Source of the DNA: Candidatus Omnitrophota bacterium
GTDB lineage: Bacteria; Omnitrophota; Gorgyraeia; Zapsychrales; Fredricksoniimonadaceae
Direction of reading: 5' to 3'
Assembly: GCA_013285735.1 (NCBI GenBank)
Contig: JABDGZ010000005.1
Location: 3,834-67,833, forward strand
Length of the DNA stretch: 64,000 bases
Position 1 is the first letter of the stretch. Each line of letters starts with the position of its first letter. The notes below the pieces were generated by a model. The model did not search any database and was not told the DNA's origin. It worked only from the letters and a program-made list of their open reading frames with translations. Made by a program: the position numbers and the translations under genes. Positions 37,981 through 64,000 of this stretch are shown here, one piece after another.

Positions 37981-37988
37981 CTTCTTCT

Positions 37989-39104: not shown

Positions 39105-39115
39105 TTTTCACAAAT

Positions 39116-39216: not shown

Positions 39217-39228
39217 ATGGTATATTTA
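39217..39228 (+). promoter_or_regulatory. shared cassette promoter-like 12-mer ATGGTATATTTA (higBA copy)
   Basis: An identical 12-mer lies at 40544-40555 upstream of brnT. It contains the -10-like TATATT 7 nt before the higB GTG. The adjacent inverted repeat TTCCC-N5-GGGAA (39199-39213) is a possible operator. Confidence 0.35.
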
Positions 39229-39232
39229 AATC

Positions 39233-40361: not shown

Positions 40362-40450
40362 AAAATAATCCACCGGTCGCCAGTTTTTGAATTGGTAAGA
40401 CCTAGAATTATTTCATAAGAAAAGTTCGGATTTCTAGGGGACGTGGGGAG
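40362..40450. repeat. cassette-end element R-B
   Basis: AAAATAATCCACCGG...AAAAGTTCGGATTTCTAGGGGACGTGGGGAG. The minus strand reads LPTSPRNPNFSYEIILGLTNSKTGDRWIILK*. Confidence 0.85.
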
Positions 40451-40470
40451 TTTGATAGTCGAAGAAGGGT

Positions 40471-40483
40471 AAAATCCGAACTT
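40471..40483. repeat. inverted partial copy (L3) of the cassette-end core
   Basis: AAAATCCGAACTT lies 20 nt after R-B, forming an inverted repeat with AAGTTCGGATTT of R-B. Confidence 0.6.
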
Positions 40484-40490
40484 CTTGGTA

Positions 40491-40524
40491 AAAAAGCCGT
40501 CCTTAATACAAGGATGGCTTTTTT
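40491..40524 (+). terminator. rho-independent terminator
   Basis: AAAAAGCCGTCC-loop-GGATGGCTTTTTT. Confidence 0.55.
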
Positions 40525-40565
40525 ATTGAATAATGCTAAGAATATGGTATATTTACATTGTACAT

Positions 40566-40859
40566 ATGGATGATCTTAAATTCGATTGGGACAAAAATAA
40601 GGCAGTGCTTAATAAAAAGAAACATGGTGTTTCTTTTGAAGAAGCTGTCACGGTATTTTATGACGATGATGCTTTAGAATTTCATGATCCTGATCATTCT
40701 GAGAGTGAAGACAGATTTTTTATGGTAGGTTTGAGTTTTCGCACAAGGGTTTTGCTGGTTTCTCATTGTATAAGAGAAGCTGGATCATTAATTAGAATCA
40801 TTTCGGCCAGAAAAGCAACCAAGCAAGAAGCTGGGAAATATTGGGAGGAAAAGACATGA
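40566..40859 (+). CDS. brnT: type II toxin BrnT (DUF497)
   Basis: 'FDWDKNKAVLNKKKHGVSFEEAVTVFYDDDALEFHDPDHSESEDRFFMVG...IRIISARKATKQE'. Start at ATG 40566. Confidence 0.8.
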   Translation: MDDLKFDWDKNKAVLNKKKHGVSFEEAVTVFYDDDALEFHDPDHSESEDRFFMVGLSFRTRVLLVSHCIREAGSLIRIISARKATKQEAGKYWEEKT

Positions 40860-41077
40860 GAGCAGAATATGATCTATCAAAAATGAAGTTTCGTCGTAAT
40901 CCTTATGCTGCCCGGTTGAAAAGGCCAGTTACAATCCGTTTGGGCGCAGATATTATTAGCTATTTTAAGTCAATGGCTAAAGAAATGGGTGTGCCCTATC
41001 AGAATTTAATTAACTTATATTTAAGGGATTGTGTACAGGCCCATCGTAAGATAGGGTGGATATCTAATTTAAAATAA
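40856..41077 (+). CDS. brnA: type II antitoxin BrnA
   Basis: ATGA overlap with the brnT stop. GGGAGG RBS. 'VTIRLGADIISYFKSMAKEMGVPYQNLINLYLRDC' fits the BrnA/CopG-like pattern. Confidence 0.75.
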   Translation: MRAEYDLSKMKFRRNPYAARLKRPVTIRLGADIISYFKSMAKEMGVPYQNLINLYLRDCVQAHRKIGWISNLK

Positions 41078-46103: not shown

Positions 46104-46817
46104 ATGAAAAACTTAAAATATCTTCTTTTATTGTTACTCATTTGCGCCTCGCAGGTAGCGTATGCGCAAGTGTCTTCAGGGTCAGATGCCTTGCCTGCAG
46201 AAATGACGCTTTGGCAGACATTAAAGGCTGGCGGGGGGGTCATGGTTGTTATTGGATTCCTTTCTGTCCTGGCTGTTGCTATTATCATTTATGATTTTAT
46301 GATGCTTACGGTGGATAAATTAGCGCCCCGTGATTTTTTTGTTGATGTGATGCGTAAAATTGAAAGCAGGGATTTTGCTGCTGTTCAAACGATGTGCCGT
46401 AATGATAATATTACGATCATTTCCAAAATTGTGCTGGCCGGCCTTGAGCGTAGAAATCAGTATGATGATACGGCCCGCGAAGCGATGGAAAATACCGCCC
46501 GTGTTGAATTGACCAATCTTTGGCAAAACATCAGTTATCTATCAGACATCGTCGCTGTAGCGCCTCTCTTAGGTTTGCTGGGAACAGTCCTTGGGATGAT
46601 CCAGGCCTTTCATGCGGTACCCTTGCAATCAGCCAGTGTTAAGACGACTCTTTTAGCGGCAGGTATCTCCAAGGCCATGGTAACTACAGCTTCAGGACTG
46701 GTCGTGGCTATTCCATGTCTGATCGCCTATTCCTATTTCCGAGGTCAGGTGCAACAGGTTACTAACAAGATCGAGATGTATAGCACGGACATTATCAAAG
46801 CGATCCAAAACCGGTAA
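46104..46817 (+). CDS. exbB: MotA/TolQ/ExbB proton-channel protein
   Basis: 'VAPLLGLLGTVLGMIQAF', 'GISKAMVTTASGLVVAIP'. Confidence 0.85.
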   Translation: MKNLKYLLLLLLICASQVAYAQVSSGSDALPAEMTLWQTLKAGGGVMVVIGFLSVLAVAIIIYDFMMLTVDKLAPRDFFVDVMRKIESRDFAAVQTMCRNDNITIISKIVLAGLERRNQYDDTAREAMENTARVELTNLWQNISYLSDIVAVAPLLGLLGTVLGMIQAFHAVPLQSASVKTTLLAAGISKAMVTTASGLVVAIPCLIAYSYFRGQVQQVTNKIEMYSTDIIKAIQNR

Positions 46818-46834
46818 ATTTAGAGGGACTCAAC

Positions 46835-47260
46835 ATGCCTAAATTCGATTTTTCTGAATATCATAAGCAACGGCCAATGATTCAATTAGCCCCTTTGGTT
46901 GACATAGCGTTTTGGGCATTGATGTTTTTTATGATCATTGCTGTTTTTAATCAAATGGAAGTCCAGGTTAATATGACACTTCCTAAGTCCAAGACAGCCG
47001 TCCAATCCGCTCAAAGTGCAGGCAAGATTGTGATCAATATTACCAGGGACGGGCAATTTATTGTTAATCAAAAGCGATATACCAGCACTGGCCTGGCAAT
47101 TATGCTTAGAGAAGTTTCTAAATTATTTCCCAATCAGCAGGTCATTATCCGGGCTGATGAATTAACCTATCATAAGTATGTGATCCAAGCCCTAGATGCC
47201 TGTGGCCTTTCCAATCTTTCGGACGTATCCTTTTCAACACTTAGGGACGAGAGCAAATAA
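46835..47260 (+). CDS. exbD: ExbD/TolR biopolymer transport protein
   Basis: 'LAPLVDIAFWALMFFMI'; 141 aa with a single TM segment. Confidence 0.8.
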   Translation: MPKFDFSEYHKQRPMIQLAPLVDIAFWALMFFMIIAVFNQMEVQVNMTLPKSKTAVQSAQSAGKIVINITRDGQFIVNQKRYTSTGLAIMLREVSKLFPNQQVIIRADELTYHKYVIQALDACGLSNLSDVSFSTLRDESK

Positions 47261-49588
47261 ATGAGATCCATCGTCATCGCCATTTTATTTTTAATGGCCC
47301 CCACATGTATTTACGCTCAAACACCTGTTAAGGAATCCGAACAGTTGGATTTTGCTCAAGGCTTGCTTTCACGGGGCATGTACGATATGGCTATCTTGCA
47401 ATACCAGAAGTTTATCTCCGATTATCCCCAAAGTTCATCTTTGTCAGAAGCTTATTTGTATTTGGCAGAAGGTTATTTTTTATCCCAGGATTTTAATAAG
47501 GCTGTTGATGCTTTCAATAAATTCAATCAACTTTATCCTAATTCAGGGCAATTGCCGATGAGTATATTACGTTTGGGCCAAATTGATATTCAACAGCAAA
47601 AATATGATGAGGCCTTAAAAGAGTTGACATCCATCGATGTTCAAAAGCAGGTAAAAGGGGAGATGCTCCAATCATTTGATTTTTATATGGCCCAAGCGTA
47701 TATCGGAAAAACAGATACTGTTGATGCCTTAGATTTTTTCCAGAAAGCAACCCAAGTCGAGGGAGCAAAAGCCTACACTGCTGAAGCTTTTAAAGAAATA
47801 GGCATGATTCAGGTCCAGAATGGTCATTACAGTGACGCCATGGATGCGTACGTAAAATCAATGCAATTAGCAGAGGATAGCACTCTTAAAGGAGAGTTAA
47901 TTTACAAGATCTCCGAGCTTGAATTTTTATCAGGTAAATATGATGATGCCATTAAAGGATTCGGGAAGATTTTAGAGAATTACTCCGGTTCGGGTTTGAC
48001 CCAGGATGCCCTGGCTAATTTGCTTTTATCTTATTTTAATTTAGGGCAGTATGACCAATTGTTAAAGGAATATCAGAAGAATGCCCCGCAGATCAGGGAT
48101 GATGATAATTATTTTGCAACCCACCTTGCAGCAGTGATGGCCTATATTGAGTTAGAAAAGTATGACCAGGCCAATGCACTGTTAGACCGTATGCTTGGCT
48201 TTCCAGTATTAAAACCTGAAGAGAGGGCAAAGGTTTATATCAAGAAAGCGGATATTTTGATCAGGAAAAAAAAGTTTAAGGATGCCTTGGCATTATTGGA
48301 GACTGATGTTGTCGAAGATCCCCAGGACGCTGATGAAGTTTTATTTTTGAAAGCCCAGGGGTATTACGGTCTTGAAGATTTTGACCATGCGTTTAATTTC
48401 TTTGAGAATGTCTATTTGAATTTTCCTAATTCCCGCTTTTTGAAGGCCTCACTTTTAGGCCAGGCGCATACCCGTAAGGCAACGGGCAGGTTTAAGGAGT
48501 CTGAAGCTTTATTTTTAAAATACGTGGATATACAGGACCAGCCTGATTTAAAAAGTGAAGCTTTGTACGATGCAGTGATGATGGCTGTTAAAGCGGGGGA
48601 TCTAAGCGGGGTCATTAGCTCTGCACAAGAATATTTAAAAATGTTTCCTGATGGTAATCAATATAGTGAAGTTTTAATGATCCTGGCTGATAATGAGGGC
48701 CAAAATAATCATGCTCAGGATGCAGTTGAATTATTACAGGGGTATTTAGCTAAACCAGCACAGCTTCAAAGGCCGAATGCCGCTTATTTTTTATTAGGAT
48801 ACAATCAACAGCTTTTAGGTAACAGCGATAAAGCCTTGGCGGCTTACGCGCAGGTTGACCAACGTAAAGAAGAAGGGAAATTTTATGTGGCTGCCCTTAA
48901 AAATATGGCGGTGATTTATCTTTCTCAAAAGAATTATAATCAGGCCATGAACTATTTTGATCGATTGATCAGCCAGCCGGACGCAAATGATTTACAAGTG
49001 AAGACCTATATTTGGGTTTGTAATGAATATTTAAAATTACAAAAATTCGACGATGTTTTGCGTATCGCGAGCCAGGCGGAAAGGCGTTTTCCTGTTCAGG
49101 ATCTTTTAGAGATCAAATATTTTAAAGCTGAAGCTTTGCGCGGGATGGGGCGCTGCGATGATGCAAACAAGCTTTATGATCAGGTGACTTCATCGATAGA
49201 CAAAAATGCCTATACCGGAAGCGCTCATATTGGTGAGGGTTTATGTTTGGTTAAGATTCAGAAATTTGATTTGGCAGTGGGGGAGTTCCAAAAAGCTTTA
49301 GATGAAAATGCCGATGATGCCACTGTTACGGTGCATGCAAGGTTTGAGATGGCCAATCTCGACGTTTCTCGAGGAAATCTTGATGACGCGCTTAAATTAT
49401 ATCTTTTGGTGGCGACCATTTATGATAGTGATTACTATTGTTCTGAAAGTTTATTGCGGGCCGCGAAGATTTTTGAGCAACAAAAACATCAAGAAGATGC
49501 TCAAAAAATGTATTCAGAAATTCTGGATAAATATAAAAACAGCGTTGCGGCTCAATATGCCAGGCAAAGAGTGGGTCTTTTAAAATGA
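47261..49588 (+). CDS. secreted TPR-repeat protein (775 aa)
   Basis: Signal peptide, followed by more than 12 TPR-like units ('A.YLLG..Y...N...A...F'). Confidence 0.7.
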   Translation: MRSIVIAILFLMAPTCIYAQTPVKESEQLDFAQGLLSRGMYDMAILQYQKFISDYPQSSSLSEAYLYLAEGYFLSQDFNKAVDAFNKFNQLYPNSGQLPMSILRLGQIDIQQQKYDEALKELTSIDVQKQVKGEMLQSFDFYMAQAYIGKTDTVDALDFFQKATQVEGAKAYTAEAFKEIGMIQVQNGHYSDAMDAYVKSMQLAEDSTLKGELIYKISELEFLSGKYDDAIKGFGKILENYSGSGLTQDALANLLLSYFNLGQYDQLLKEYQKNAPQIRDDDNYFATHLAAVMAYIELEKYDQANALLDRMLGFPVLKPEERAKVYIKKADILIRKKKFKDALALLETDVVEDPQDADEVLFLKAQGYYGLEDFDHAFNFFENVYLNFPNSRFLKASLLGQAHTRKATGRFKESEALFLKYVDIQDQPDLKSEALYDAVMMAVKAGDLSGVISSAQEYLKMFPDGNQYSEVLMILADNEGQNNHAQDAVELLQGYLAKPAQLQRPNAAYFLLGYNQQLLGNSDKALAAYAQVDQRKEEGKFYVAALKNMAVIYLSQKNYNQAMNYFDRLISQPDANDLQVKTYIWVCNEYLKLQKFDDVLRIASQAERRFPVQDLLEIKYFKAEALRGMGRCDDANKLYDQVTSSIDKNAYTGSAHIGEGLCLVKIQKFDLAVGEFQKALDENADDATVTVHARFEMANLDVSRGNLDDALKLYLLVATIYDSDYYCSESLLRAAKIFEQQKHQEDAQKMYSEILDKYKNSVAAQYARQRVGLLK

Positions 49589-51330
49589 ACGACAAGGTCA
49601 GAAAAAGAATACTGATTGCTTTTTTAGTTTCCATATTAATCCATATCGGATTCTTGGTGTGGAGTTACTTTGTCAAAATTTTACCGGCTGTTCCTTTTCC
49701 TGAAAAACTTGAAACTATTTTTCATGTTAAGATTGATAAAGAAGAACATTTGGGTGAGGAAAAGTTAAAATTTGATACAGATTTTTCCCGTAAATCTCCC
49801 AAACCTGATAATCCTTTTACTGAAAATATGCTAAGCAAGCCTTCGGTTGAATCTGAAGAGTTAATCAAAAACAATATTGAGTCATCCATTCAAAAGAATC
49901 ATCAAGCGCTTATCCCTTCATCAGTCCAAGAAAATCAAGTGCTTAAAAAATCAGAATTTAATGATATCGTCATGACCAGAAAGGTCCGTCGTGCGGTGCG
50001 GGAGAATTTGGTGGAATTAGGAGAAGTGCCAAACGAGAATTTCTCTTCTGGTTCCCCTGTGCTGATTTCCGGCGAGGATATTTCCAGGCATTTTCTGGAT
50101 AAAAGCGCCATGCCTGCCAGGGCCACCTTGGCAGCACCCATGCAAGCGGCTAATTCACAAACTGAATTTCAGATGATGAAACGCAATTTAACAGGAGTGG
50201 AGCATGAATCTAAATCCATGGATTTGGGTACAGCCTTGACCTATCAGCTTTTTAAATATCAAGACCCTGTTTCAGGGCAGAAATATTTTAAACTTGTGGT
50301 GAAGGTGAGGGACGCGACTATCGATTTTCCAGTTATCCCTAAAGAGATTATTTTTTTAGTGGATGCGTCAGGTAGTATAGGGATGGAGCGCTTAAGTCAG
50401 TTTGAAGAAGGATTGATTTATAGTTTAAAACATCTTAACCCTGACGATCGTTTTAATATCCTGGTTTTTAAAGATAAAAATGTCCCTTTGAGTCCGACAT
50501 CTTTAAAGGTCAGTCCTGAAAATATAAAATCTGCCATTGAATTTCTTCAAGGCCAGAAATCATGGTCTACGACGGACATCTACAATGCGCTAAGGACAAG
50601 TATTAATTTGCAGGATCCTTTTGTCCCGTCTTATAGGGTATTTATGAGTGACGGGTTTCCAACGACCGGTATCATTAATGCCAGGCGCGTGATTAATGAG
50701 ATTTCAAAGATCAATGATAACAGGGTGAGTATTTTTACATTTGGCGGAGGATCGAGTGTTGATCCGTATATGCTGGATTTCATAGCTTTTAAGAACCGCG
50801 GCTGGTCAAGGGTGGCTGACCGGGAATATTTTATGGGCAGAGAATTTGCCCAAATGTACGATGAGATTAAAGATCCGCTTCTTTTAAATGTGCGTTATTA
50901 TGTCAGCGGTCTTAATGATAAAGAGATTTTTCCTCAAACCATGCCTGATTTTTTTAAAGGTTCTCAATTTGTTGTTTATGGCAGGTATACAAATGAAGAT
51001 AAATTTGTAGTTCAAATCCGGGGGGAGATGGTGCAAGACAAGAAAGAATTCATGGTGAGCGCCTCACTGAAAGATGCTCTTCCAGGCAGTAAGCAGATTG
51101 CTCACGATTGGGCTTTTCATAAGGTTTATTATTTGATCAGCGAACTAAAATACAATGAAAATAATCAGGTCTTGCTTGATGCTATTGGTAATTTGTGTAC
51201 CAAATTTCATATTATCACCCCGTATTCAATCTCATTCCAACCTTCTCAACACCCGGTGTTGCGGAGATTGACGAGTAAAGAAAATAAGAAAGCGCTGAAT
51301 TCTCCTAATTTTGGTATAATAAAAAAATGA
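49585..51330 (+). CDS. membrane-anchored VIT/VWA-domain protein with TonB-type SxxxH anchor
   Basis: N-terminal 'ILIAFLVSILIHIGFLVW' has Ser16-x3-His20, as in the TonB anchor. VWA MIDAS 'IIFLVDASGSIG' and 'DRFNILVFKD'. No TonB C-terminal domain. Confidence 0.6.
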   Translation: MNDKVRKRILIAFLVSILIHIGFLVWSYFVKILPAVPFPEKLETIFHVKIDKEEHLGEEKLKFDTDFSRKSPKPDNPFTENMLSKPSVESEELIKNNIESSIQKNHQALIPSSVQENQVLKKSEFNDIVMTRKVRRAVRENLVELGEVPNENFSSGSPVLISGEDISRHFLDKSAMPARATLAAPMQAANSQTEFQMMKRNLTGVEHESKSMDLGTALTYQLFKYQDPVSGQKYFKLVVKVRDATIDFPVIPKEIIFLVDASGSIGMERLSQFEEGLIYSLKHLNPDDRFNILVFKDKNVPLSPTSLKVSPENIKSAIEFLQGQKSWSTTDIYNALRTSINLQDPFVPSYRVFMSDGFPTTGIINARRVINEISKINDNRVSIFTFGGGSSVDPYMLDFIAFKNRGWSRVADREYFMGREFAQMYDEIKDPLLLNVRYYVSGLNDKEIFPQTMPDFFKGSQFVVYGRYTNEDKFVVQIRGEMVQDKKEFMVSASLKDALPGSKQIAHDWAFHKVYYLISELKYNENNQVLLDAIGNLCTKFHIITPYSISFQPSQHPVLRRLTSKENKKALNSPNFGIIKK

Positions 51331-51929
51331 ACATCAAAATATTTTTAGTCGCAGGAGTACTTACAGGATTGCTTCTTGGTTTTAATGTTTGCGCGGATGA
51401 AGAATCTGATGTCATTAAGGCAGATCGTCAGGCCTTGCTAGACGCCAATGCTTCAGGTGTGTCTTCAAAGATATTAGCTGCCAAGGAGCAGTTGAGCGAT
51501 GATCTTGGGATGGAGGCAGATCAAAGGCGTAAGGACCTGGAGGGGATTACCATACCTTTAGTGCCTGATGGCCAGGGTCATTTTCTTGCAGATGTGTTAA
51601 TCAATAATAAGGTCCATGCCTCCTTGGTGGTGGATACAGGATCTCCTGTAATTATGTTGACTTCTTCATTTGTTCAGAAATTAGGCCTTGATCTGAGCCA
51701 GTCTACGGTGGGTTATGTAGAAGTGTTAAATGGTAAATATAAAGCAGCTGCGGTTTCATTAGATAGTGTAAAGGTGGGGAGTGTCCAGGCCTATGATGTC
51801 AGTGCGACACTTTTACTTCAAGATAATAGGGAAATTAGCGATGGCTTGTTAGGCTTGTCATTTTTAGGTAAATTCCACTATACCTTGGATCCAGTACGGC
51901 AAATACTGGTTTTGAAAAAACTGCAATAA
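51327..51929 (+). CDS. retropepsin-like aspartic protease (secreted)
   Basis: Signal peptide. 'ASLVVDTGSPVIMLT' (DTG), 'DGLLGLSFL'. Confidence 0.7.
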   Translation: MNIKIFLVAGVLTGLLLGFNVCADEESDVIKADRQALLDANASGVSSKILAAKEQLSDDLGMEADQRRKDLEGITIPLVPDGQGHFLADVLINNKVHASLVVDTGSPVIMLTSSFVQKLGLDLSQSTVGYVEVLNGKYKAAAVSLDSVKVGSVQAYDVSATLLLQDNREISDGLLGLSFLGKFHYTLDPVRQILVLKKLQ

Positions 51930-53480: not shown

Positions 53481-55955
53481 ATGCCTTCTGATTCTAAAAA
53501 ACCAGCAGATTGGTTTGTTTCTACCAAAGAAATGACCAAGGAAGCGTTAAAATTGTCGTTTCAGATGAATCGGCAATACACTCTTTCCAAAGACCAATAC
53601 ACCTCGACCATGCATGATAATTTTATGGCCCTGTCCATGGCTGTCCGTGACCGTATCGTTGAGCGGTGGATCAAGACCCAGCAGGGTTACCATAAAAAGA
53701 ATGTCCGTCGGGTTTATTATTTGTCCATGGAATTTCTGATCGGTCGCCTGATGGGCAATAATATCTATAATTTAGGCATAGAAAAACAGGCAACCGATGC
53801 GTTGGATGATTTAGGATTAGATATGGAAACTGTCCGGGAGCAGGAGGTTGATGCTGGTTTGGGCAATGGCGGTTTAGGGCGCCTGGCTGCCTGTTTTTTG
53901 GATTCTATGGCAAGTCTTGGGGTGCCAGCGCATGGTTATGGGATCCGTTATGATTACGGTATATTTAATCAAAAAATTAAGGATGGTTTTCAGGTAGAAC
54001 TTCCGGATGAATGGCTGCGGACCGGAAATCCATGGGAATTTGAGCGTCCTGAAAATACCGTTACGATCCGTTTTTATGGAAGTACGCAGGCAGATAAAGA
54101 TTCTGGTGCCAAGGTTCGTCATAAATGGATTAACACACAGGATGTGCTTGCTGTTCCGTATGATTTTCCTGTTGCCGGGTATAAAAATGATGTTGTTAAT
54201 ACTTTGCGTTTGTGGTCTGCGCGTGGGACAGAAGAATTTGATTTTGATTATTTTAAGTCCGGCGATTATGAACAGGCTGTTTATAAAAAAATCCTTTCTG
54301 AAAATATTTCCAAGGTCTTGTACCCGTCAGATGATAAAAGCCAGGGTAAGGAGTTACGTTTAAAGCAGGAGTATTTTTTTACCGCAGCTTCCATGGCTGA
54401 TATTTTAAGGCGTTATAAGTCAGAGAATCCTGATCTCAATGATCTTCCTAAAAGAGTAGTTATTCAATTAAACGATACGCATCCCACTTTAGGGATTGTC
54501 GAGCTTATGAGGCTTTTGCTTGATGAGTATGGTTTTGAGTGGGAGACTGCCTGGGATATTACGACCAAGGTATTTGCGTATACGAATCATACCCTGATGC
54601 CTGAGGCCTTGGAATGCTGGGGCATTGATTTATTTGAGAAACTTTTACCTCGTCATATGCAGATCATCTATGACATTAATGCTAATTTTCTAAGAAGCGT
54701 TGCTCTCCGGTATCCTGGTGATAATGACCGTTTAAGGCGCATGTCGATCATTGAGGAAGGATATCCTAAAAAAGTCCGCATGGCTTATCTGGCCATCGTA
54801 GGCAGTTCTTTTGTCAACGGGGTTTCGAAATTACATTCTGATTTACTTCAAGAAAAACTATTCAAAGATTTTTATGAGATTTATCCCGAGAAATTTAATA
54901 ATAAAACAAATGGGATTACTCAGCGTCGATGGCTCTTGAAAGCCAATCCACGATTGTCTACCTTGTTGATGGAAAAACTGGGAGATGGCTGGGTTATGGA
55001 TTTAAATAAATTAGAACAGCTCAATACGCTTCAAAGTAATAAAGCCTTTCGTGAGCGATGGATTGATATCAAGAAACAAAATAAAGAATCTCTCGTGAAA
55101 TATATTAAATCCAGCATGAATATCAACCTTGACCCTGAATCTATTTTTGATGTGCAGATCAAACGTATCCATGAGTACAAGCGCCAAATGCTTTTTGCTT
55201 TTTATATAATTGCACAGTATTTGCGTCTCAAGCAAAGCCCTAAAGAATTTATTTATCCGCGCACCTTCATGATTGGCGGGAAGGCGGCCCCGTCGTACAC
55301 CATGGCCAAATTAACGATTAAATTTATTAATAGCATTGCTGATGTGATTAATCATGATAAAAGTGTGAATGACAAGATACGACTGGTGTTTCTTGAAAAT
55401 TACCGCGTGTCTTTGGCGGAAAAGGTGTTTCCAGCCAGTGATTTGTCCGAGCAGATTTCGACTGCCGGGACAGAAGCTTCAGGGACGGGTAATATGAAAT
55501 TCATGATGAATGGGGCCTTGACCATCGGTACTTTGGATGGTGCAAATATTGAAATAGCCCAGGCCGTAGGGGATGAGAATATATTTATTTTTGGACTTAA
55601 AGCGCCTGAGGTCGAAGCCTTAAAGCAGAAGGGCTATGATCCGAAACAATACATTGATAAGAATCCCATGCTCAAAGAAATTTTTAAATTGATCCACAGC
55701 GGCTTTTTTAGCCCGCATGACCTTAAGCTTTTTGCTCCTATTGTCCAGTCGCTGGAACAGTATGATCCTTATTTAGTTTGTGCTGATTTTGAGAGCTATT
55801 GCCAAACTCAGGATGCGGTTTCAAAAATGTATTTGAATAAAGAGGAGTGGACTAAAAAATCCATCATCAACGTGGCCCAAAGCGGTTACTTCTCCTCGGA
55901 CCGCACCATTAGGGAATATGCCAAAGATATTTGGAACATTCCTGTTAAACAATGA
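53481..55955 (+). CDS. glgP: glycogen/maltodextrin phosphorylase
   Basis: 'LGNGGLGRLAACFLDS', 'EASGTGNMKFMMNGALTIGTLDGANIEI' (PLP lysine). Confidence 0.9.
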   Translation: MPSDSKKPADWFVSTKEMTKEALKLSFQMNRQYTLSKDQYTSTMHDNFMALSMAVRDRIVERWIKTQQGYHKKNVRRVYYLSMEFLIGRLMGNNIYNLGIEKQATDALDDLGLDMETVREQEVDAGLGNGGLGRLAACFLDSMASLGVPAHGYGIRYDYGIFNQKIKDGFQVELPDEWLRTGNPWEFERPENTVTIRFYGSTQADKDSGAKVRHKWINTQDVLAVPYDFPVAGYKNDVVNTLRLWSARGTEEFDFDYFKSGDYEQAVYKKILSENISKVLYPSDDKSQGKELRLKQEYFFTAASMADILRRYKSENPDLNDLPKRVVIQLNDTHPTLGIVELMRLLLDEYGFEWETAWDITTKVFAYTNHTLMPEALECWGIDLFEKLLPRHMQIIYDINANFLRSVALRYPGDNDRLRRMSIIEEGYPKKVRMAYLAIVGSSFVNGVSKLHSDLLQEKLFKDFYEIYPEKFNNKTNGITQRRWLLKANPRLSTLLMEKLGDGWVMDLNKLEQLNTLQSNKAFRERWIDIKKQNKESLVKYIKSSMNINLDPESIFDVQIKRIHEYKRQMLFAFYIIAQYLRLKQSPKEFIYPRTFMIGGKAAPSYTMAKLTIKFINSIADVINHDKSVNDKIRLVFLENYRVSLAEKVFPASDLSEQISTAGTEASGTGNMKFMMNGALTIGTLDGANIEIAQAVGDENIFIFGLKAPEVEALKQKGYDPKQYIDKNPMLKEIFKLIHSGFFSPHDLKLFAPIVQSLEQYDPYLVCADFESYCQTQDAVSKMYLNKEEWTKKSIINVAQSGYFSSDRTIREYAKDIWNIPVKQ

Positions 55956-56362
55956 ACATAGAACATATTAAAAAATTAAAGCAGGACCATTTTAAAATCA
56001 CCCCTAAGCGCCGGGCGATACTGGATCTTTTTGACAAAAAAGATAAATGCTTGACGCCGGAGACGGTTTGGGAACATTTAAAAAAGACTTTTAAGCAGTC
56101 AGGTTTGCCGAGCATCTATCGCAATTTAGATCTTTTTGTAAAACAGGGTATTTTGATTAGGATTGACCGTGATGAGCGCAAGCGTTACTATGCTTTATGC
56201 CACGATCATAGCGGCCATCATCATCACCATATTGTTTGTGTAGTCTGCGGCAAGGTGGATGATTTTCCCGTTTGCAATTTTCCTGATATTAAAGATGTTA
56301 AGGGTTACAAAATTCTAAGTCACTCAATGCAAATTAACGGCATTTGTAAAGCCTGTCAATAA
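55952..56362 (+). CDS. Fur-family metalloregulator (Zur-like by context)
   Basis: 'ITPKRRAILDLF' winged helix. 'HDHSGHHHHHIVCVVCGKV' and 'CKAC' metal sites. Confidence 0.8.
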   Translation: MNIEHIKKLKQDHFKITPKRRAILDLFDKKDKCLTPETVWEHLKKTFKQSGLPSIYRNLDLFVKQGILIRIDRDERKRYYALCHDHSGHHHHHIVCVVCGKVDDFPVCNFPDIKDVKGYKILSHSMQINGICKACQ

Positions 56363-56363
56363 T

Positions 56364-57062
56364 ATGGTCACCTATATCCAAAACATCCTTTTAAGAGGAT
56401 CATTAATTGAAGTTCTTGTAGCCGTGGCTTTCGCCGGGGCAGTGGCTTCTTTGAGCTCGTGCACCATTGCTCGCCTGCCGGTATTATTGGGCCTTGTTTC
56501 TTCAACCACACAAACAAAAAATCGGGGATTTTTTCTTTCGATTGCATTTTCTTGCGGTCTTATCATTTCTTATACATTTATTGGCATGCTTTTTGGGGCG
56601 ATTGCGCATATTGCTTCAAAACTCGTGGCTATCAGTCAGTATCTTTATTTTGTATTGGGTTTTTTAATGATTTTAGGCGGTCTGTTTTTTGCTGGATTGA
56701 TTTCTTTTGGTGGGGGTATCAAGACCCATTGTGAAAATGCGGTTAAAGGTGTTAAGACCTTGCCTTCGGCATTTATATTCGGGATGCTTTTCGCGTTTTT
56801 AGAGATGCCGGCCTGTCCTTGTTGTGGGGCTGTTTTGCTGCTGATTGCCAGTTTAATCGCTATAAAAGGTTCGTTGCTTTATTCTGGTATTGTGTTTTTT
56901 AGTTTTGCATTAGGCCAAAGTCTGCCCATTTTAGTGATAGGGTTTTCAACAAGCATCTTAAAGCAGATACTTCCGAAAACTCAGAATTTGGAAGGGATTA
57001 TCAGTTTCGGTGTCGGAAATATTTTAATCGTCTCGGGGATTTTCTTAGTAACACTTTCTTAA
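56364..57062 (+). CDS. DsbD/CcdA-like (DsbD_2) multi-pass membrane protein
   Basis: Six TM segments. Cys motifs 'SSCTIARLP' and 'PACPCCG'. Confidence 0.45.
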   Translation: MVTYIQNILLRGSLIEVLVAVAFAGAVASLSSCTIARLPVLLGLVSSTTQTKNRGFFLSIAFSCGLIISYTFIGMLFGAIAHIASKLVAISQYLYFVLGFLMILGGLFFAGLISFGGGIKTHCENAVKGVKTLPSAFIFGMLFAFLEMPACPCCGAVLLLIASLIAIKGSLLYSGIVFFSFALGQSLPILVIGFSTSILKQILPKTQNLEGIISFGVGNILIVSGIFLVTLS

Positions 57063-57710
57063 ATGCCACACACTCATTCACATTCCAAAGGCTGCTGTGA
57101 TCATGATCACGAGCATGCTCATGAACATCATTCCATGAGTCTTGATCGTCGATGGCTTTTGTCAATTTTGATTGTCGTGGTTTTGTTGATCCTTTTACGG
57201 CCATTTATCGTGGGCCAAATGCTTGTCCGTGTAACATCGTACTCCACCAGTTCTTCTTACAATGATGCCGTACGGATATGTAAAAAAATTATTGCCATTG
57301 ACCATGATAATAGGCAGGCATGGACGTCGTTAGGATATGCCTATATGGATTTGAATCAGGTGGATAGGGCGATTCAGGCATTTGAGCAGGTTTTATTTTT
57401 GAATCCTGAAGACAAGGGGGCGGCTTCTTTTGAATTGGGCCAAGCCTATTATTCAAAAGGTGATTATGCTCGCGCCATTGAATATTTTGAACGTGTCAGG
57501 AGTGCGGGGCCTCGTGCCGCAGCATTGCTTGACGCTGATATTTTAAAATACCGTCATGGCACATTAGGGTTTCGCAGTTTGAACAGCATGCAAACCCTGC
57601 TTTCTCTTTTGCTTGAAAGCTATAAGCATACAGGCAACACCGCTCAAGTTGCGATCATCCAAAAAGAATACGATTTTTATAAAAATAAGCATAGCGGGGT
57701 ATTGTTTTAG
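57063..57710 (+). CDS. His-rich N-terminus / TM / TPR protein
   Basis: 'MPHTHSHSKGCCDHDHEHAHEHH', then one TM segment, then TPR units. Confidence 0.5.
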   Translation: MPHTHSHSKGCCDHDHEHAHEHHSMSLDRRWLLSILIVVVLLILLRPFIVGQMLVRVTSYSTSSSYNDAVRICKKIIAIDHDNRQAWTSLGYAYMDLNQVDRAIQAFEQVLFLNPEDKGAASFELGQAYYSKGDYARAIEYFERVRSAGPRAAALLDADILKYRHGTLGFRSLNSMQTLLSLLLESYKHTGNTAQVAIIQKEYDFYKNKHSGVLF

Positions 57711-57795
57711 TTTTTCTTGACGCAACGTCTTTTTTCTTTTAAACTGTAAATAGAAAATATTTCTATTTGTGTGAATAAAAAAAGGAGATGAAGAA

Positions 57796-58689
57796 ATGAG
57801 TAATTTTAGGCGCGCTGGAATCTTGGCTTTGTCGATTATCATTTTGGGAATAACCCCTGCTCACGCCGATAAAATTAAAGCAATAGCGACCATCAGTATT
57901 ATTGGTGATGTGGTCAAAAATGTAGCGGGGGATGCTGTTAATTTAGTTGTTTTAGTTGGCCCCAACGGAGATGCTCATGAATATGAGCCGATTCCGGCAG
58001 ACTCTGTTAATATTGCTCAAGCAGATATTATTTTTGAGAATGGTTTACATCTGGAGCATTGGCTTGATAAATTATATCTTGCCAGTGGTTCAAAAGCCAA
58101 ACGGATCGTTGTGTCACAAGGAGTTACCCCAAGGATTTTTGAAGACAATCCCCAGGAAACCGATCCTCACGCCTGGCAGGATGTCACCAATGTTATTCTC
58201 TATACCCAAAATGTCCGCGATGCGCTTATTGCGATTGACCCTGCCAATAAAGATAAATACACCGCTAATGCCAGTGATTATATCCAGAAGCTCCAGTCCT
58301 TGGATGCTTGGGTAAAAGCTCAGGTGGCTTTAATTCCTGTAGATAAACGTAAATTAGTTACCAATCATGATGCGTTAGGGTATTTCGCCAGACGGTATGG
58401 TTTTAAAATTATCGGGGCTGTGATTCCATCTGCCACGACAGAGGCAGCAGATCCTTCGGCCAAGGAAACTGCAGATTTATTAAATATTATAAAATCAAAC
58501 GGTGTTCATGCTATTTTTTCAGAGAATATGGCCAACCCTAAATTAGCCCAGACGCTTTCCCAAGAAGCAGGTGTTCAAGTCGGTCCAGAACTATATACAG
58601 ATGCCTTAGGCCCTGTTGGCAGTGAAGGTGAGACCTATTTAAAAATGATAAAGTACAATGTAGGCGTTTTTCAGAAATATTTAAAATAG
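57796..58689 (+). CDS. metal (Zn/Mn) ABC transporter substrate-binding protein, ZnuA/TroA family
   Basis: Signal peptide. 'GDAHEYEP', 'DPHAWQD', 'LVTNHDALGYFARRYG'. Confidence 0.8.
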   Translation: MSNFRRAGILALSIIILGITPAHADKIKAIATISIIGDVVKNVAGDAVNLVVLVGPNGDAHEYEPIPADSVNIAQADIIFENGLHLEHWLDKLYLASGSKAKRIVVSQGVTPRIFEDNPQETDPHAWQDVTNVILYTQNVRDALIAIDPANKDKYTANASDYIQKLQSLDAWVKAQVALIPVDKRKLVTNHDALGYFARRYGFKIIGAVIPSATTEAADPSAKETADLLNIIKSNGVHAIFSENMANPKLAQTLSQEAGVQVGPELYTDALGPVGSEGETYLKMIKYNVGVFQKYLK

Positions 58690-58885
58690 TAGTGTTATTG
58701 CGAGGAGCCGAAGGCGACGTGGCAATCTTTTAGTCAAATTCCCCTTCAGAATGACGTCGATCTTGAAGCGAAAGATCATAGTTGCTAAGCACTTAAAAGA
58801 AATTTCATTATTTGCTTTCCAAGGTATTAGATGATTGTTATAATTTTTTAACAAATCACACGAAGTCTATATTTTCTAATACCTT

Positions 58886-61800
58886 ATGTCCTCATTTTTA
58901 TATATATTCCGTTTTTCGTCCCTCTTTATATTCTTTATATTCTCATTTTTGAGTGTATCCTACGCTGCGTACAACCCTCCAGGCGGTAATAATAACGATA
59001 TTCAATACAAAAATGGCCTTAGCTATGGCGGTTCAGACAGTTTTGTGACTAATGGTACAAATGTCGGCATCGGCACATTCAATCCCTTTGGGGGTAATTT
59101 GATTGTCAATGGTGGGGGCAATGTGGGCATTGGTTCCTTGGTGCCTGGCCAAGCCCTTGATGTTAAAGGTACCATCCGTACGACAAGTTTTATCATGAGC
59201 GGTCAAAGTCCAACGAGCGGGTATGTGTTGACAGCGGCTGACAGCAGTGGTGACACGACCTGGTCATCAGCGGGTGGCGTCAGCGGATGGACAGTGTCAG
59301 GCAATAATGTTTACGAAACAGCCAGCGGCAATGTCGGTATTGGAACGACCTTTCTGACAACATCTGCTTTATCAGTGATGAATGGTAATGTAGGTATCGG
59401 CACGTGGCTTCCCACCAGTTCATTAAATATTATGGGCGGAAATTTAGGCATAGGAACTACTGTTGTATCTTCTGCTTTAAGTGTAGTGGGGGGAGTAACT
59501 ATAAGTAATGGTGCTGCAGGTACACCTCCCGTTTTAACAGGACAATTAAATGCGTTATCAGATAGTGTGCATTTTATAGCGGGCTTTGGTGATTGGATAA
59601 GAAGTACCAATGGATCAAGAGTCGCCGGGATGGATGATGCGATAACTTCCAATGGTCAAAATTTAGATCTTTATACAAATTCGACTCCCAAATTCGAAAT
59701 CAATGCTAATGGTAATGTCGGCATAGGATCGCTTACACCTATCGCCCAGCTGGATGTCGAAGGTTCAATAAGTCCTACTGTTTTCAATGCTGCTTCTGGT
59801 TCAATTGCATTAAACGTAGGTATAGGTTCTTTTGCTCCAGGTCAAAAACTCGACGTCACCGGCACCATCCGTACCACTAACTTTACCATGAGCGGCCAAA
59901 GCCCATCGAGCGGATATGTGTTGACAGCTGTTGATAGCAGTGGAGATACGACCTGGTCGTCGGCGGGTGGTGTCAGCGGCTGGACAACATCAGGCAATAA
60001 TGTTTATGAAACCAGCGGCGGTAACGTTGGTATAGGCACAACCTTTTTGACAACGTCAGCATTGACGGTGATGAATGGTAATGTGGGTATCGGCACCTGG
60101 GTGCCGTCTGCGGAATTTCAAGTAAACAATGCTTCTACTCCCTTTATTGTTACTTCTACGGGTAATGTAGGTATTGGTACTTCAACAGTGGTGACCCCTC
60201 TACAAATTTATAATGGTAATGCAGGTATATATCTAGGTTATTCGGGTTCAAGTGGATTCGGATATATTCATTTGGGAAATGCTGCTCCAACTGGTACTAA
60301 TTATGCTTTAGCAGCCGATGATGGCAACACACTTATAAATTCAACTAGTTCAGGGTCTATTGTTTTTAAGTATAACAATAATCAAAATGTAGTTTTTACG
60401 TCCGCTGGCAATGTTGGCATTGGTACATTGACTCCTTTTAACCAATTGGATGTTAATGGCTCGGTAGGCATTGGGACGTCAGAATCGTCTTATGTTGCGA
60501 CCACGGCTCCAGCGGGTGGGATGATTGTGCAGGGTAACGTGGGCATCGGTTCTTTGTCTCCGGGCCAAGCGCTCGATGTGCAAGGCACCATACGTACAAC
60601 AAACTTTGCTATGAGCGGCCAAAGTCCGACAAGCGGCTATGTCCTGACCGCTGCTGATAGCAGTGGTGATGCAACATGGTCATCAGCAAGCAGTGTCAGT
60701 GGATGGACAGTGACAGGCAACAATGTTTACGAAACCAACGCTGGCAACGTTGGCATCGGCACCACCTTCCTAACCACTTCTGCTTTATCTGTCATGAATG
60801 GCAATGTGGGTATTGGTACCTGGGTGCCGGCGAATATATTTGAAATCGGCACACAGAAATTAGATTTTACAGCCGGCGGTAATCTGGGTATTGGCACGTC
60901 GGTGCCAAGTGCCACTTTACAAGTAAATGGTTCTCTGAGGGTGGGTAATGGTACTAATGCTTTCAATCCTTCAAATGGATATGGCATTATTACATCTTCT
61001 TCAGGTAATGCTGGTTTGACTATTAGTCAGAATGGTACAAGTAATTTTACTTCACTTGATCTTGTTACAAATAATTCTACAAATTACGGATGGTCCGTAC
61101 AGATTCAAGCCAATGACTCGGGGCTTCAGTTTGCAGATAGACAGTCAGGTCCAACTAGAATGTATATTCAACAGGGTACAGGTAATATTGGTATTGGCAC
61201 GATTAATCCAGCTGGTGGGTTGGTGGTCACGAGTGGTAATGTTGGCATTGGAACAATGAATCCAATATCTCCACTTGGCCTTCTGCAAGTGGTAACTGCC
61301 ACGGATTCAACAAGTGGCCAACCTAATGGTTTTTCAAGCGCTGAAACTGTTATTGCTGGAGCTGGTGGTAACAATGGAGGTGTCTTTGCGTCCTATAATC
61401 AAACAACCAATACTGGATTTATAGGTTCACTAAGTCCGGGAGTATCGTGGAGGAATTTGATATTGCAGCCAGTCACTGCTGGCCATGTAGGTATTGGTAC
61501 GTTTACGCCAACTTCATTCCTTGATATTGCAGGCGGCACGACTATCGGCAGCGGATTTGTGGCTAATACCTCGCCAAGTAATGGTTTGTTGGTGCAGAAC
61601 AATGTCGGTATCGGTACAGTTACAACGGCTAATACACAAGGATTATCCGTGCTTGGTGGAGCAAGTTTTGGTTCTTATGCAACTTCTGCGGCACCGGCTG
61701 GGGGTTTAATTATAAGCGGCAACGTGGGCATCAGCTCTTTAACTCCCGGCCAAGCGCTTGATGTCACTGGTACGGTACGCACAACGAACTTTATCATGAG

Positions 61801-64000
61801 CGGCCAAAGTCCGACGAGCGGGTATGTGCTGACCGCCGCTGACAGCAGTGGTGACACGACCTGGTCATCAGCAGGTGGTGTCAGCGGTTGGACAGTTTCT
61901 GGGAATAATGTTTACGAAACAGCCAGCGGTAACGTCGGCATCGGCACAACCTTCTTGACGACATCTGCGTTGTCGGTGATGAATGGCAATGTAGGTATCG
62001 GTACTTGGATTCCTGCGAAACTTTTTAGCGTGACAGGGGACACTTATCATAATGGTAATATCGGAATTGGCACGACCTTTGTTGGTGGGGCTGGTGAAGC
62101 AGCTTTGACGGTGATGAATGGTAATGTGGGTATTGGCACATGGGTGCCAGGTGCGGCATTGGTTGTGATGAATGGCAATGTAGGTATTGGTACAACAAAT
62201 CCAGCAGCTTCGTTGGAATTAAAAACGGGTAGTATTCTCCTTAACAATGGCGGTGGATATGCAGAACGCAGAACGACAGGTGGAGCATTGATTTCTTTGC
62301 TCGGTATTTCCTCGGGGACAGACAATGTGTTTATGAATGGTGGGGGATCTGATAATTCTCGGCAATTAGGAATTTTTAATAGTGGTGGAACTCTTTTAAT
62401 GGTCGTTGGCATGGGAGGTAATGTTGGTATTGGTACTTCTGGCTTCAATAATAAGCTATCCATTGCCGGACCTGGGGGTGTGGGGATTGGGACAGTTGCC
62501 GGAGATGGCTATATAAATACGTCAGCACCCAGTGGTGGAATGATTGTTGAAGGCAATGTCGGCATCGGCTCCTTGACCCCTGGCCAGGCGTTGGATGTCA
62601 CCGGCACGGTGCGTACGACGAGCTTTATCATGAGCGGCCAAAGTCCGACGAGCGGGTATGTGCTGACCGCCGCTGACAGTAGTGGGGATACAACATGGTC
62701 ATCAGCAGGCGGTGTCAGTGGATGGACAGTGTCAGGCAATAACGTTTATGAAACAGCCAGCGGCAACGTCGGCATTGGCACAACCTTCCTGACGACATCT
62801 GCGTTGTCGGTGATGAACGGCAATGTGGGTATTGGGACGTGGGTGCCTGGTTCAGCTTTGCAGGTAAATGGTAATATCGGTATTGGAACTTCTGGCAATA
62901 ACGCAGCTCCTTCTTTATATTTCGTAAATAGACCCAATTCTGGATTGTATTTTTCTTCTGGTGCAAACGGTATTGTCACTACGATAAATAGTACAGCTAC
63001 AGCTTTAGTCAGTGCAGCTGGTCTTGCAATCCCTGTAGGGGATAGATTAGGATGGTCGTCAGCTAGCACTGCAGATGGTGCCGGGACCGATACCGCATTT
63101 TCCAGGGTTGCTGCTAATGTGGTGGCTGTTGGTAATGGTACAGCTTCTAATTTTACAGGAACTTTTTCAGCAGGCAATATCGGTATCAGCACAATAACTC
63201 CTGTTAATCAATTGGTAGTCAATGGTGGCGTGGGTATTGGAACGGCAAATTCTTCTTTTATCACAACTACTGCTCCGACAGGTGGAATAATAATTCAGGG
63301 TAATGTGGGTATTGGTTCCCTTAACCCAGGCCAAGCGCTTGACGTCACCGGCACTGTCCGCACGACAAGCTTTATCATGAGTGGTCAAAGTCCAACCAGC
63401 GGTTATGTGTTGACAGCTGCTGACAGCAGCGGTGACACAACATGGTCGTCGGCAGGTGGAGTCAGCGGGTGGACAGTGTCAGGCAATAATGTTTATGAAA
63501 CAGCCAGCGGCAATGTTGGCATCGGTACAACCTTTTTGACTACTTCCGCCTTGTCAATAATGAACGGTAATGTGGGTATAGGCACATGGTTGCCGTCTTC
63601 TGCCTTGTCGATCAATGGGGGTATTCAAGGTGCAAATGGAACAGTTACAAATCCAACGTACTCGTTTCTTGCAGAGCCCAATTACGGCGTATATATGAAC
63701 TCGTCAACAAAAATGTCATTCGTGGTAGCTGGCCAAGACCAATTCGTACTAGCTGGAGGAGGCTTTATGAGTCTTGTCCAAGGGGCTGTTTTAGGTTTTT
63801 ATTCTTCCGGAATCACAGCCTCAGATACAGGTATTTCCAGGACTGCAGCTGCAACCTTAGCCATTGGTAATGGTGCGTCAGCAAATTCAAGTGGAACTTT
63901 ACTATTGGGCAATATTGGCATTGGCACAACATTGACAACTAGCTCTGCGCTCTCAGTCATGAATGGCAATGTAGGTATCGGCACTTGGGTACCATCGAAA
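58886..64000 (+). CDS. giant secreted repeat protein, phage-tail-fibre-like GNVGIGT repeats (3' end beyond window)
   Basis: ATG 58886 with signal-like 'MSSFLYIFRFSSLFIFFIFSFLSVSYA'. The frame (phase 2) was translated by hand and spot-checked open to nt 64000 (1,705 codons). It is absent from the ORF track, presumably because no stop is reached. There are dozens of 'GNVGIGT' units, plus 'PSxxF...G.Y......F...G...' segments typical of tail-fibre domain proteins. Confidence 0.8.
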   Translation, partial: MSSFLYIFRFSSLFIFFIFSFLSVSYAAYNPPGGNNNDIQYKNGLSYGGSDSFVTNGTNVGIGTFNPFGGNLIVNGGGNVGIGSLVPGQALDVKGTIRTTSFIMSGQSPTSGYVLTAADSSGDTTWSSAGGVSGWTVSGNNVYETASGNVGIGTTFLTTSALSVMNGNVGIGTWLPTSSLNIMGGNLGIGTTVVSSALSVVGGVTISNGAAGTPPVLTGQLNALSDSVHFIAGFGDWIRSTNGSRVAGMDDAITSNGQNLDLYTNSTPKFEINANGNVGIGSLTPIAQLDVEGSISPTVFNAASGSIALNVGIGSFAPGQKLDVTGTIRTTNFTMSGQSPSSGYVLTAVDSSGDTTWSSAGGVSGWTTSGNNVYETSGGNVGIGTTFLTTSALTVMNGNVGIGTWVPSAEFQVNNASTPFIVTSTGNVGIGTSTVVTPLQIYNGNAGIYLGYSGSSGFGYIHLGNAAPTGTNYALAADDGNTLINSTSSGSIVFKYNNNQNVVFTSAGNVGIGTLTPFNQLDVNGSVGIGTSESSYVATTAPAGGMIVQGNVGIGSLSPGQALDVQGTIRTTNFAMSGQSPTSGYVLTAADSSGDATWSSASSVSGWTVTGNNVYETNAGNVGIGTTFLTTSALSVMNGNVGIGTWVPANIFEIGTQKLDFTAGGNLGIGTSVPSATLQVNGSLRVGNGTNAFNPSNGYGIITSSSGNAGLTISQNGTSNFTSLDLVTNNSTNYGWSVQIQANDSGLQFADRQSGPTRMYIQQGTGNIGIGTINPAGGLVVTSGNVGIGTMNPISPLGLLQVVTATDSTSGQPNGFSSAETVIAGAGGNNGGVFASYNQTTNTGFIGSLSPGVSWRNLILQPVTAGHVGIGTFTPTSFLDIAGGTTIGSGFVANTSPSNGLLVQNNVGIGTVTTANTQGLSVLGGASFGSYATSAAPAGGLIISGNVGISSLTPGQALDVTGTVRTTNFIMSGQSPTSGYVLTAADSSGDTTWSSAGGVSGWTVSGNNVYETASGNVGIGTTFLTTSALSVMNGNVGIGTWIPAKLFSVTGDTYHNGNIGIGTTFVGGAGEAALTVMNGNVGIGTWVPGAALVVMNGNVGIGTTNPAASLELKTGSILLNNGGGYAERRTTGGALISLLGISSGTDNVFMNGGGSDNSRQLGIFNSGGTLLMVVGMGGNVGIGTSGFNNKLSIAGPGGVGIGTVAGDGYINTSAPSGGMIVEGNVGIGSLTPGQALDVTGTVRTTSFIMSGQSPTSGYVLTAADSSGDTTWSSAGGVSGWTVSGNNVYETASGNVGIGTTFLTTSALSVMNGNVGIGTWVPGSALQVNGNIGIGTSGNNAAPSLYFVNRPNSGLYFSSGANGIVTTINSTATALVSAAGLAIPVGDRLGWSSASTADGAGTDTAFSRVAANVVAVGNGTASNFTGTFSAGNIGISTITPVNQLVVNGGVGIGTANSSFITTTAPTGGIIIQGNVGIGSLNPGQALDVTGTVRTTSFIMSGQSPTSGYVLTAADSSGDTTWSSAGGVSGWTVSGNNVYETASGNVGIGTTFLTTSALSIMNGNVGIGTWLPSSALSINGGIQGANGTVTNPTYSFLAEPNYGVYMNSSTKMSFVVAGQDQFVLAGGGFMSLVQGAVLGFYSSGITASDTGISRTAAATLAIGNGASANSSGTLLLGNIGIGTTLTTSSALSVMNGNVGIGTWVPSK
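59144..63589 (+). repeat. six in-frame 264-nt (88-aa) near-identical modules inside the giant gene
   Basis: Modules at 59144-59407, 59837-60100, 60560-60823, 61745-62008, 62579-62842 and 63326-63589. Each encodes 'PGQALDVxGTxRTTxFxMSGQSPTSGYVLTAADSSGDTTWSSAGGVSGWTVSGNNVYETASGNVGIGTTFLTTSALSVMNGNVGIGTW'. Confidence 0.85.

Follow-up and report, generated by a model that had tools for sequence, protein, structure and literature searches.

The 64,000-nt stretch of DNA analyzed here (hereafter the window; positions 3,834 to 67,833 of contig JABDGZ010000005.1, assembly GCA_013285735.1, from a Candidatus Omnitrophota bacterium) ends inside a long repetitive gene encoding a putative surface fiber, here called the fiber gene. 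Translation of the plus-strand frame that begins with ATG 58886 confirms what a preliminary description of this DNA had stated, namely a single frame that continues through 1,705 codons without a stop as far as the window edge at position 64000; no overlooked stop is present in 58886-64000. An in-frame TAA lies at 58877, and ATG 58886 is the first start codon after it. Besides the open frame itself, 855 homologues (E≤1e-5) and purifying selection among the internal repeats mark 58886..64000 as the 5' part of a gene. A promoter-like site, TTTCCA-17-(TG)TATAAT, lies at 58816..58844 (+), about 40 nt 5' of the start codon; it matches the consensus at 10 of 12 positions with an extended -10 TG, and is a pattern match only. 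By inspection, no clear Shine-Dalgarno sequence is visible ahead of ATG 58886. The promoter-like site sits in a 196-nt gap that separates the fiber gene from the same-strand genes upstream, and no terminator-like site was found within this gap. The C terminus falls outside the window, so that 1,705 aa is a minimum length, and the earlier label of a "giant" protein is not established. The absence of the gene from the program-made list of open reading frames (ORFs), noticed earlier, arises because the list excludes any ORF continuing past the end of the window; antisense fragments of 83-148 aa are listed in its place, as had been said, but not antisense fragments only, as one short sense ORF is listed too.

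The product begins with a predicted Sec-type signal peptide (aa 1-27; 58886..58966, +), MSSFLYIFRFSSLFIFFIFSFLSVSYA, followed after the cleavage site by AY. By inspection and hydropathy it has the expected build: its n-region is charged, the hydrophobic core spans 15 residues (maximum Kyte-Doolittle value over 12 residues of 2.77), and S-Y-A occupies positions -3 to -1, after which cleavage is predicted; the N-terminal signal or anchor proposed in the preliminary description is therefore supported. The window protein has only this one N-terminal hydrophobic segment, and an equivalent segment, commonly ending in A-x-A, is present in 138 of 204 family proteins in addition to the window's own. 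Gly, Ser, Thr, and Asn are abundant in the protein, which contains no cysteine and is therefore not a lipoprotein. The short mature N terminus (aa 28-77; 58967..59116, +) starts with AYNPPGG, resembling the A[SA]YxPFNT start of 34 of 120 homologues; three N-terminal types recur among the relatives (ASYxPFNT..., AKDFNIKN..., and ADIQAxLD...). It leads directly into the first repeats; the first capping-loop unit (of the form NVGIGTxxPxxxL, see below) lies about 30 residues beyond the point of predicted cleavage, and core module 1 begins at aa 78. The homologues are similarly built, with a median gap of 35 residues between the hydrophobic segment and the first repeat.

The remainder of the protein is built from short motifs arranged in larger modules. 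The "dozens" of GNVGIGT units described earlier are borne out by counting, with 31 matches to the strict pattern G[NS][VIL]G[IV]G[TS] (0.0085 in residue shuffles), or 35 to a relaxed one, and the full unit N[VIL]G[IV][GS][TS]xxPxxx[LFIVM] is present 20 times (residue shuffles give 0.0005). After the signal peptide and short leader, six copies of a 104-aa core module alternate with variable blocks. The core consensus is GNVGIGSxxPGQALDVxGTxRTTxFxMSGQxPxSGYVLTAxDSSGDxTW...GWTxSGNNVYETxxGNVGIGTTFLTTSALSVMNGNVGIGTW, and the copies (all +) are at aa 78-181 (59117..59428), aa 309-412 (59810..60121), aa 550-653 (60533..60844), aa 945-1048 (61718..62029), aa 1223-1326 (62552..62863; the reference for the core alignment and structure model discussed below), and aa 1472-1575 (63299..63610). 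Each is followed by a variable block on the same strand: block 1 at aa 182-308 (59429..59809; 127 aa), block 2 at aa 413-549 (60122..60532; 137 aa), block 3, the longest, at aa 654-944 (60845..61717; 291 aa), block 4 at aa 1049-1222 (62030..62551; 174 aa), block 5 at aa 1327-1471 (62864..63298; 145 aa), and block 6, cut by the window edge, at aa 1576-1705 (63611..64000; at least 130 aa). Blocks 2, 5, and 6 are mutually related, with block 2 matching blocks 5 and 6 at E values of 1e-11 to 1e-10, and block 6 is homologous to block 5. The two segments that the preliminary description quoted from between the repeats are located in these last two blocks; the PNSGLYFSSG... segment is in block 5 (aa 1350-1379; 62933-63022), and PTYSFLAEPNYGVYMNSS... 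is in block 6 (aa 1590-1622; 63653-63751).

At the DNA level the repetition appears as six copies of an approximately 300-nt unit, at 59075, 59768, 60491, 61676, 62510, and 63257, which are 70-85% identical to each other; the longest exact DNA repeat within the ORF is 57 nt. Tandem Repeats Finder reported no repeat in the region, because the repeat periods of 693-1185 nt exceed the range of the tool. The encoded cores are more alike than the DNA, at 81-95% pairwise protein identity, and the differences between copies are mainly synonymous, with saturated dS values of 0.7-2.3, dN values of 0.04-0.13, and dN/dS ratios of 0.03-0.12. This shows an old internal duplication that has been retained under strong purifying selection in the frame of ATG 58886.

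Pfam gave no match at E≤1 over the 1,705 aa, NCBIfam gave none, and single-sequence phmmer searches with the window protein against the Protein Data Bank (PDB) gave none. Matches to crystal-structure chains emerge with profiles, of which we used two, one built from 44 core modules (A2) and one from core-block-core modules (A1). Profile A2 matches Bd2133 of Bdellovibrio bacteriovorus (8OND; E 4e-9) and, with decreasing strength, Bd3182 (8OJN; E 0.0027), Bd1334 (8ON4 and 8OML; E 0.005 and 0.008), and Bd2439 (8OL4; E 0.07). These belong to the superfamily of mosaic adhesive trimer (MAT) proteins described by Caulton et al. in 2024 (PMC10769870), whose members have signal peptides and form intertwined trimeric beta-helical fibers displayed on the predator surface, and are structural homologues of the S74 fibers of phages K1F and T5 (PMC10769870). 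The tips of the 21 Bdellovibrio MATs have diversified, an S74 chaperone being present in 13 and absent from 8, and one MAT binds prey glycans (PMC10769870).

The alignments also suggest how the window protein is organized. Profile A1 aligns with about 250 residues of Bd2133 (8OND; E 8.7e-11), and the aligned stretch, as reckoned from the construct numbering, spans the Bd2133 beta-helix domains and ends about where the tip starts; the inter-core blocks are therefore presumed to be beta-helix domains, and the core a capping loop plus domain junction. Consistent with this, the window core junction aligns to Bd2133 GNVGIGATAPTAKLEVAGTIHSTSGGIKFPDGSVQTTAASGAATW, which the construct numbering places at approximately the boundary of beta-helix 2 and the tip. 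The published capping-loop motif is V-G-G/N-pi-x-x-P-x-x-x-L, with NVGIGATSPSAKLQ, NVGVGVGAPTAKMD, and MyRF RVGINTDRPDEALV as examples (PMC10769870, Supplementary Fig. 18), and the 20 NVGIGTxxPxxxL units of the window protein share its form. The "P..L.V.G" segments that had been read as caps belong to this motif, and that reading was therefore right.

The window protein thus resembles Bdellovibrio MATs (Bd2133, Bd3182, Bd1334, and Bd2439) in combining a signal peptide with beta-rich blocks bounded by NVGIGTxxPxxxL capping loops, and its relatives, like the MATs, occur in S74 and non-S74 forms with swappable tips and multi-paralogue repertoires. It differs in coming from another phylum, in its length (at least 1,705 aa, with relatives of up to 7,725 aa, compared with about 1,000 aa for the MATs), and in having at least six nearly identical copies of a 104-aa junction module. 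In the literature searched, we found no paper linking MAT fibers to Omnitrophota or Patescibacteria, and no mention of the motif "GNVGIGT". The kind of protein was known already, from MAT fibers and S74 tail fibers.

The relatives of the window protein are numerous and mostly unannotated. Among 120 homologues listed, lengths range from 939 to 2,734 aa, and nearly all lack a Pfam domain and are labeled hypothetical. The listed matches do not exceed about 1.6 to 1.75 times the query length (2,734 aa for the 1,705-aa query and 438 aa for one of 251 aa), and longer relatives, possibly including the window's own full-length product, may have been filtered out; an exhaustive profile search returned the relatives of up to 7,725 aa mentioned above. 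Of the 120 listed homologues, 119 contain the core module, with 595 occurrences in all. The exhaustive search, made with a core profile, yielded 71,780 cluster representatives at E≤1e-3, of which 19,386 remain at E≤1e-10 and 2,331 at E≤1e-30. Two of three related loci in reference genomes are in Omnitrophota metagenome-assembled genomes. Several paralogues often share a contig, with at least five on one and tandem fiber genes on two others; one of these arrays has fiber genes of 2,287, 2,462, and 3,211 aa, and the other has genes of 2,576, 952, and 3,299 aa. We note that in both arrays a small Laminin_G_3/concanavalin-like gene (239-254 aa) lies between the giant fiber genes (8884-9648 at locus L004 and 10595-11314 at the P0013 locus), and its product could be an accessory or assembly factor.

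The C termini of the relatives are varied. Among the 120 listed homologues, single-linkage clustering places a beta-rich domain of about 90 aa in 58, a short Cys-loop ending is present in 18, and there are several rarer types. Pfam searches with seven of these tip types gave no match above the cutoffs, and no correspondence to any of the six solved MAT tips emerged. We considered whether the C-terminal domains might be sorting signals of the type IX secretion system (T9SS) type, but dropped this idea, as they have no Pfam match and the taxon is the wrong one. An S74-type SDxRxK motif is located near the C terminus of 17 of 204 family proteins, and two homologues match Pfam PF13884. The YadA-head Pfam repeat PF05658 is present in two relatives, and a few relatives overall have YadA-head or glycoside-hydrolase Pfam domains.

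We think it rather likely, on the basis of these sequence relationships, that the window gene encodes a MAT-like, trimeric, Sec-exported beta-helical surface adhesin. The protein would be exported through the Sec pathway by way of its cleavable signal peptide, and would assemble into a long, probably homotrimeric, intertwined beta-helical fiber of the MAT/S74-tail-fiber type; that it probably trimerizes is suggested both by the MAT homology and by the S74 motifs of its relatives. In such a fiber, beta-helix blocks of 127 to 291 aa would be capped by NVGIGTxxPxxxL loops and joined by the 104-aa junction module, at least six times over. Surface display, anchoring, ligand binding, and biological role are argued by analogy: as in the Bdellovibrio MATs, the N-terminal end may stay at the cell surface, and the C-terminal tip, interchangeable among relatives and encoded beyond the window, may attach to a substrate or to a molecule on the surface of another cell. 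The fiber could then serve as a host-, prey-, or surface-recognition adhesin of an ultra-small, probably host-dependent bacterium. Omnitrophota are ultra-small and have host-dependent or predatory traits (PMC10066038), and the adhesin reading fits the lifestyle of this kind that has been proposed for them. The preliminary description had likewise proposed a chromosomal, signal-bearing fibrous adhesin, which agrees with the housekeeping genes nearby (see below) and with the nearest characterized proteins being surface-displayed prey-recognition adhesins, with function assigned by homology.

Several observations weigh against this interpretation. The separate N-terminal domain of the Bdellovibrio MATs, a beta-rich domain of about 130 aa directly after the signal peptide that is conserved in all 21 of them (PMC10769870), appears to be absent, as judged from its published description; there seems to be no room for it in the window protein because the capping-loop repeats begin about 30 residues after the signal peptide. 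Structure prediction is not supportive either. An AlphaFold2 monomer model of a 353-aa module, made with a 15-sequence alignment, has a pLDDT of 44, and one of the 104-aa core, made with a 44-sequence alignment, has a pLDDT of 67.5; both are extended with short strands, although a poor monomer model would be expected if the chain folds only as an intertwined trimer. Foldseek searches against the PDB and BFVD returned nothing significant, the best PDB hit being 8OND at E 2.8, which we do not use as evidence. The tip, the part that would define function, falls outside the window. The adhesin reading also requires a way for a Sec-exported fiber to get across a diderm's outer membrane and to be retained there. 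Finally, a motif scan finds no other GNVGIGT gene in the 64-kb window, and "host recognition" may be too specific a role for so widespread a module.

This last point leads to an alternative that we regard as unlikely but worth serious consideration, which is that the protein serves as a structural polymer of the cell surface in a general sense (a fiber of a coat, matrix, or biofilm, for example, or an S-layer-like appendage), providing nonspecific adhesion to particles or protection of the cell instead of specific recognition of a host or prey. The module is present in >70,000 protein clusters, too many for all to come from predators, and many carriers are therefore unlikely to be predators; the cysteine-free, Gly/Ser/Thr/Asn-rich composition would suit a robust extracellular fiber, and the gene is single-copy in the window. 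However, the swappable tips and multi-paralogue arrays of the relatives are a signature of diversified recognition, as has been argued for the MATs (PMC10769870), and the nearest characterized relatives bind specific glycans (PMC10769870).

A second alternative is suggested by the phage side of the family. The kinship with tail fibers and tailspikes that the preliminary description had proposed is supported by the profile matches to MAT structures, by a weak match of the window protein to the PHROG tail-fiber family phrog_9942 (E 1.2e-7; phrog_3269 follows at E 0.0018), and by the presence of the module on IMG/VR viral contigs. There are 26 IMG/VR loci encoding relatives of the core, with core identities of up to 53%. 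At L005/L006, a 1,284-aa protein matching the window protein at E 5e-30 is encoded just after baseplate wedge and tail-collar fiber genes, and at L009 a 480-aa relative is encoded between the major head and tail protein genes. Fibers of about 2,430 aa without signal peptides are encoded at L012 and L014; the L014 fiber matches phrog_9942 at E 1e-106, and core residues 2-78 are common to both. The nearest of these viral-contig relatives (L005, 5292-9146; L009, 7500-8942) have Sec-like signal peptides even though they lie inside phage structural modules, which is unusual for virion fibers. In contrast, a tblastn search of 50,697 GenBank phage records gave no match, and the link to phages is therefore a distant one that is visible only at the profile level.

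The window protein is thus like the S74 phage fibers (the K1F endosialidase, 3GW6; T5 pb1, 4UW8; and phrog_9942) in sharing the capping-loop repeat, and in that some of its relatives have S74 motifs; it is unlike phage tail fibers in being chromosomally encoded among housekeeping genes, in having a Sec signal peptide in place of a virion-attachment N terminus, and in lacking BLAST-level similarity to GenBank phages. Could it nonetheless be the tail fiber of a prophage, tailocin, or contractile injection system, with the other genes located downstream of the window? The phrog_9942 match and the adjacency of related genes to baseplate, head, and tail genes at L005, L009, and L014, some of them with signal-like N termini, would be consistent with this. 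However, the annotated part of the window upstream of the gene (about 29-58 kb) contains housekeeping genes and lacks any phage structural gene. The same-strand genes immediately upstream (55952-58689) encode a Fur-family regulator, a CcdA/DsbD-like membrane protein, a TPR protein, and ZnuA, and further upstream are those for glycogen phosphorylase (GlgP), SSB, toxin-antitoxin pairs, RecR, DnaX, Tex, RecN, and phosphofructokinase; the named relatives of the Tex protein are all from Candidatus Omnitrophica/Omnitrophota, at 66-81% identity. The two related arrays (L004 and the P0013 contig) also have no phage structural Pfam families among their neighbors, and the Sec signal peptide is atypical of a virion fiber. 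Together with the absence of tblastn matches, these features make a phage-type tail fiber quite improbable.

A third possibility, less probable still, is that the protein is not a trimeric fiber at all but a monomeric beta-solenoid passenger, either autotransporter-like or an enzyme-bearing beta-helix. The 17- to 19-residue spacing of the repeats, with two short strands per unit, could in principle form a single-chain solenoid, and there are the few relatives with YadA-head or glycoside-hydrolase domains. But AlphaFold2 models of the monomer are extended and have low confidence, the one made with the 44-sequence alignment included, the sequence homology points to intertwined trimeric beta-helices, S74 trimer chaperone motifs are present in the relatives, and the window protein itself has no Pfam enzyme or autotransporter domain. 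A comparison with the trimeric autotransporter adhesins YadA, BadA, and AtaA, which are long trimeric bacterial surface fibers, is of interest here. The window protein is similarly modular and repetitive, and two of its relatives match PF05658, but its 1,705 aa include no Pfam match to a YadA head, stalk, or anchor, and the fold-search matches to AtaA and BadA are not significant.

Lastly, an artefact, either a frame that is open by chance or, as the preliminary description had allowed for, a repeat that was collapsed or misassembled, might be suspected of a repetitive region that reaches the window edge, but is practically out of the question, as saturated dS combined with low dN/dS among the cores rules out both, exact repeats are no longer than 57 nt in copies only 70-85% identical, and hundreds of homologues share the architecture.

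The MAT-like adhesin can also be distinguished from the very large proteins already described in this phylum. The Omnitrophota giant proteins (Archaeovorins and Dockerin-type) are 30,000-85,000 aa long with many transmembrane helices, and carry HEAT, TPR, glycosyltransferase, or dockerin/thrombospondin domains (West-Roberts et al. 2023, bioRxiv 10.1101/2023.11.21.568195; Seymour et al. 2023, PMC10066038). The window protein is like them in phylum, in being large and presumably extracellular, and in its proposed attachment to other cells, but it has no HEAT, TPR, glycosyltransferase, or dockerin/thrombospondin Pfam matches and only the single N-terminal hydrophobic segment. The domain content does not match membership in either group.

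How uncultivated ultra-small bacteria find and hold their hosts or prey is largely obscure, and the focus thus far has been on type IV pili and the enormous Archaeovorin proteins. The fiber gene ties Omnitrophota to the sole experimentally characterized bacterial system of phage-like recognition fibers, the Bdellovibrio MATs, described in 2024. If this tie holds, the swappable tips would be concrete, clonable candidates for host-range determinants, which could be expressed, solved structurally, and made to serve as probes for finding hosts in environmental samples. Its capping-loop fiber module ranks with the most common building blocks of metagenomic proteins that lack annotation, and no Pfam model covers the window's copy. 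The gene is a solid and mechanistically suggestive lead; its module is very common, and the tip that would define function is not in the window. More speculatively, Omnitrophota, and perhaps other ultra-small host-dependent bacteria, might carry an expanded and undescribed branch of the MAT/tail-fiber superfamily, consisting of Sec-exported fibers of 1 to 8 kaa in which one constrained junction module is iterated between swappable beta-helix blocks and tips. The repertoires of such fibers would determine the host range of the cells, much as receptor-binding proteins do for phages, and modules would be exchanged with phages of the same habitats; we regard this as a tentative idea that could well be wrong.

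Several other features of the window are of note. About 7 kb upstream of the fiber gene is a Bat-like envelope gene set (46104-51929, +), consisting of an ExbB-ExbD pair followed by genes for a 775-aa TPR protein, a 581-aa VWA protein, and a 200-aa retropepsin-like aspartyl protease. Just downstream of recR, a group I catalytic intron (Rfam RF00028; 76 bits, E 1.4e-17) at 37725-37935 splits a tRNA gene at 37700-37981 (+). ARAGORN missed this tRNA with default settings; with the intron option it calls a tRNA-Leu(UAA) with a 193-nt intron at position 34, although this identity is uncertain, as the exons resemble an ordinary short-arm tRNA. Following the intron-bearing tRNA, in an otherwise ORF-poor stretch, is a small toxin-antitoxin cluster (38369-41077, +) with DUF2442, a HigB toxin and its 121-aa partner, and BrnT/BrnA.

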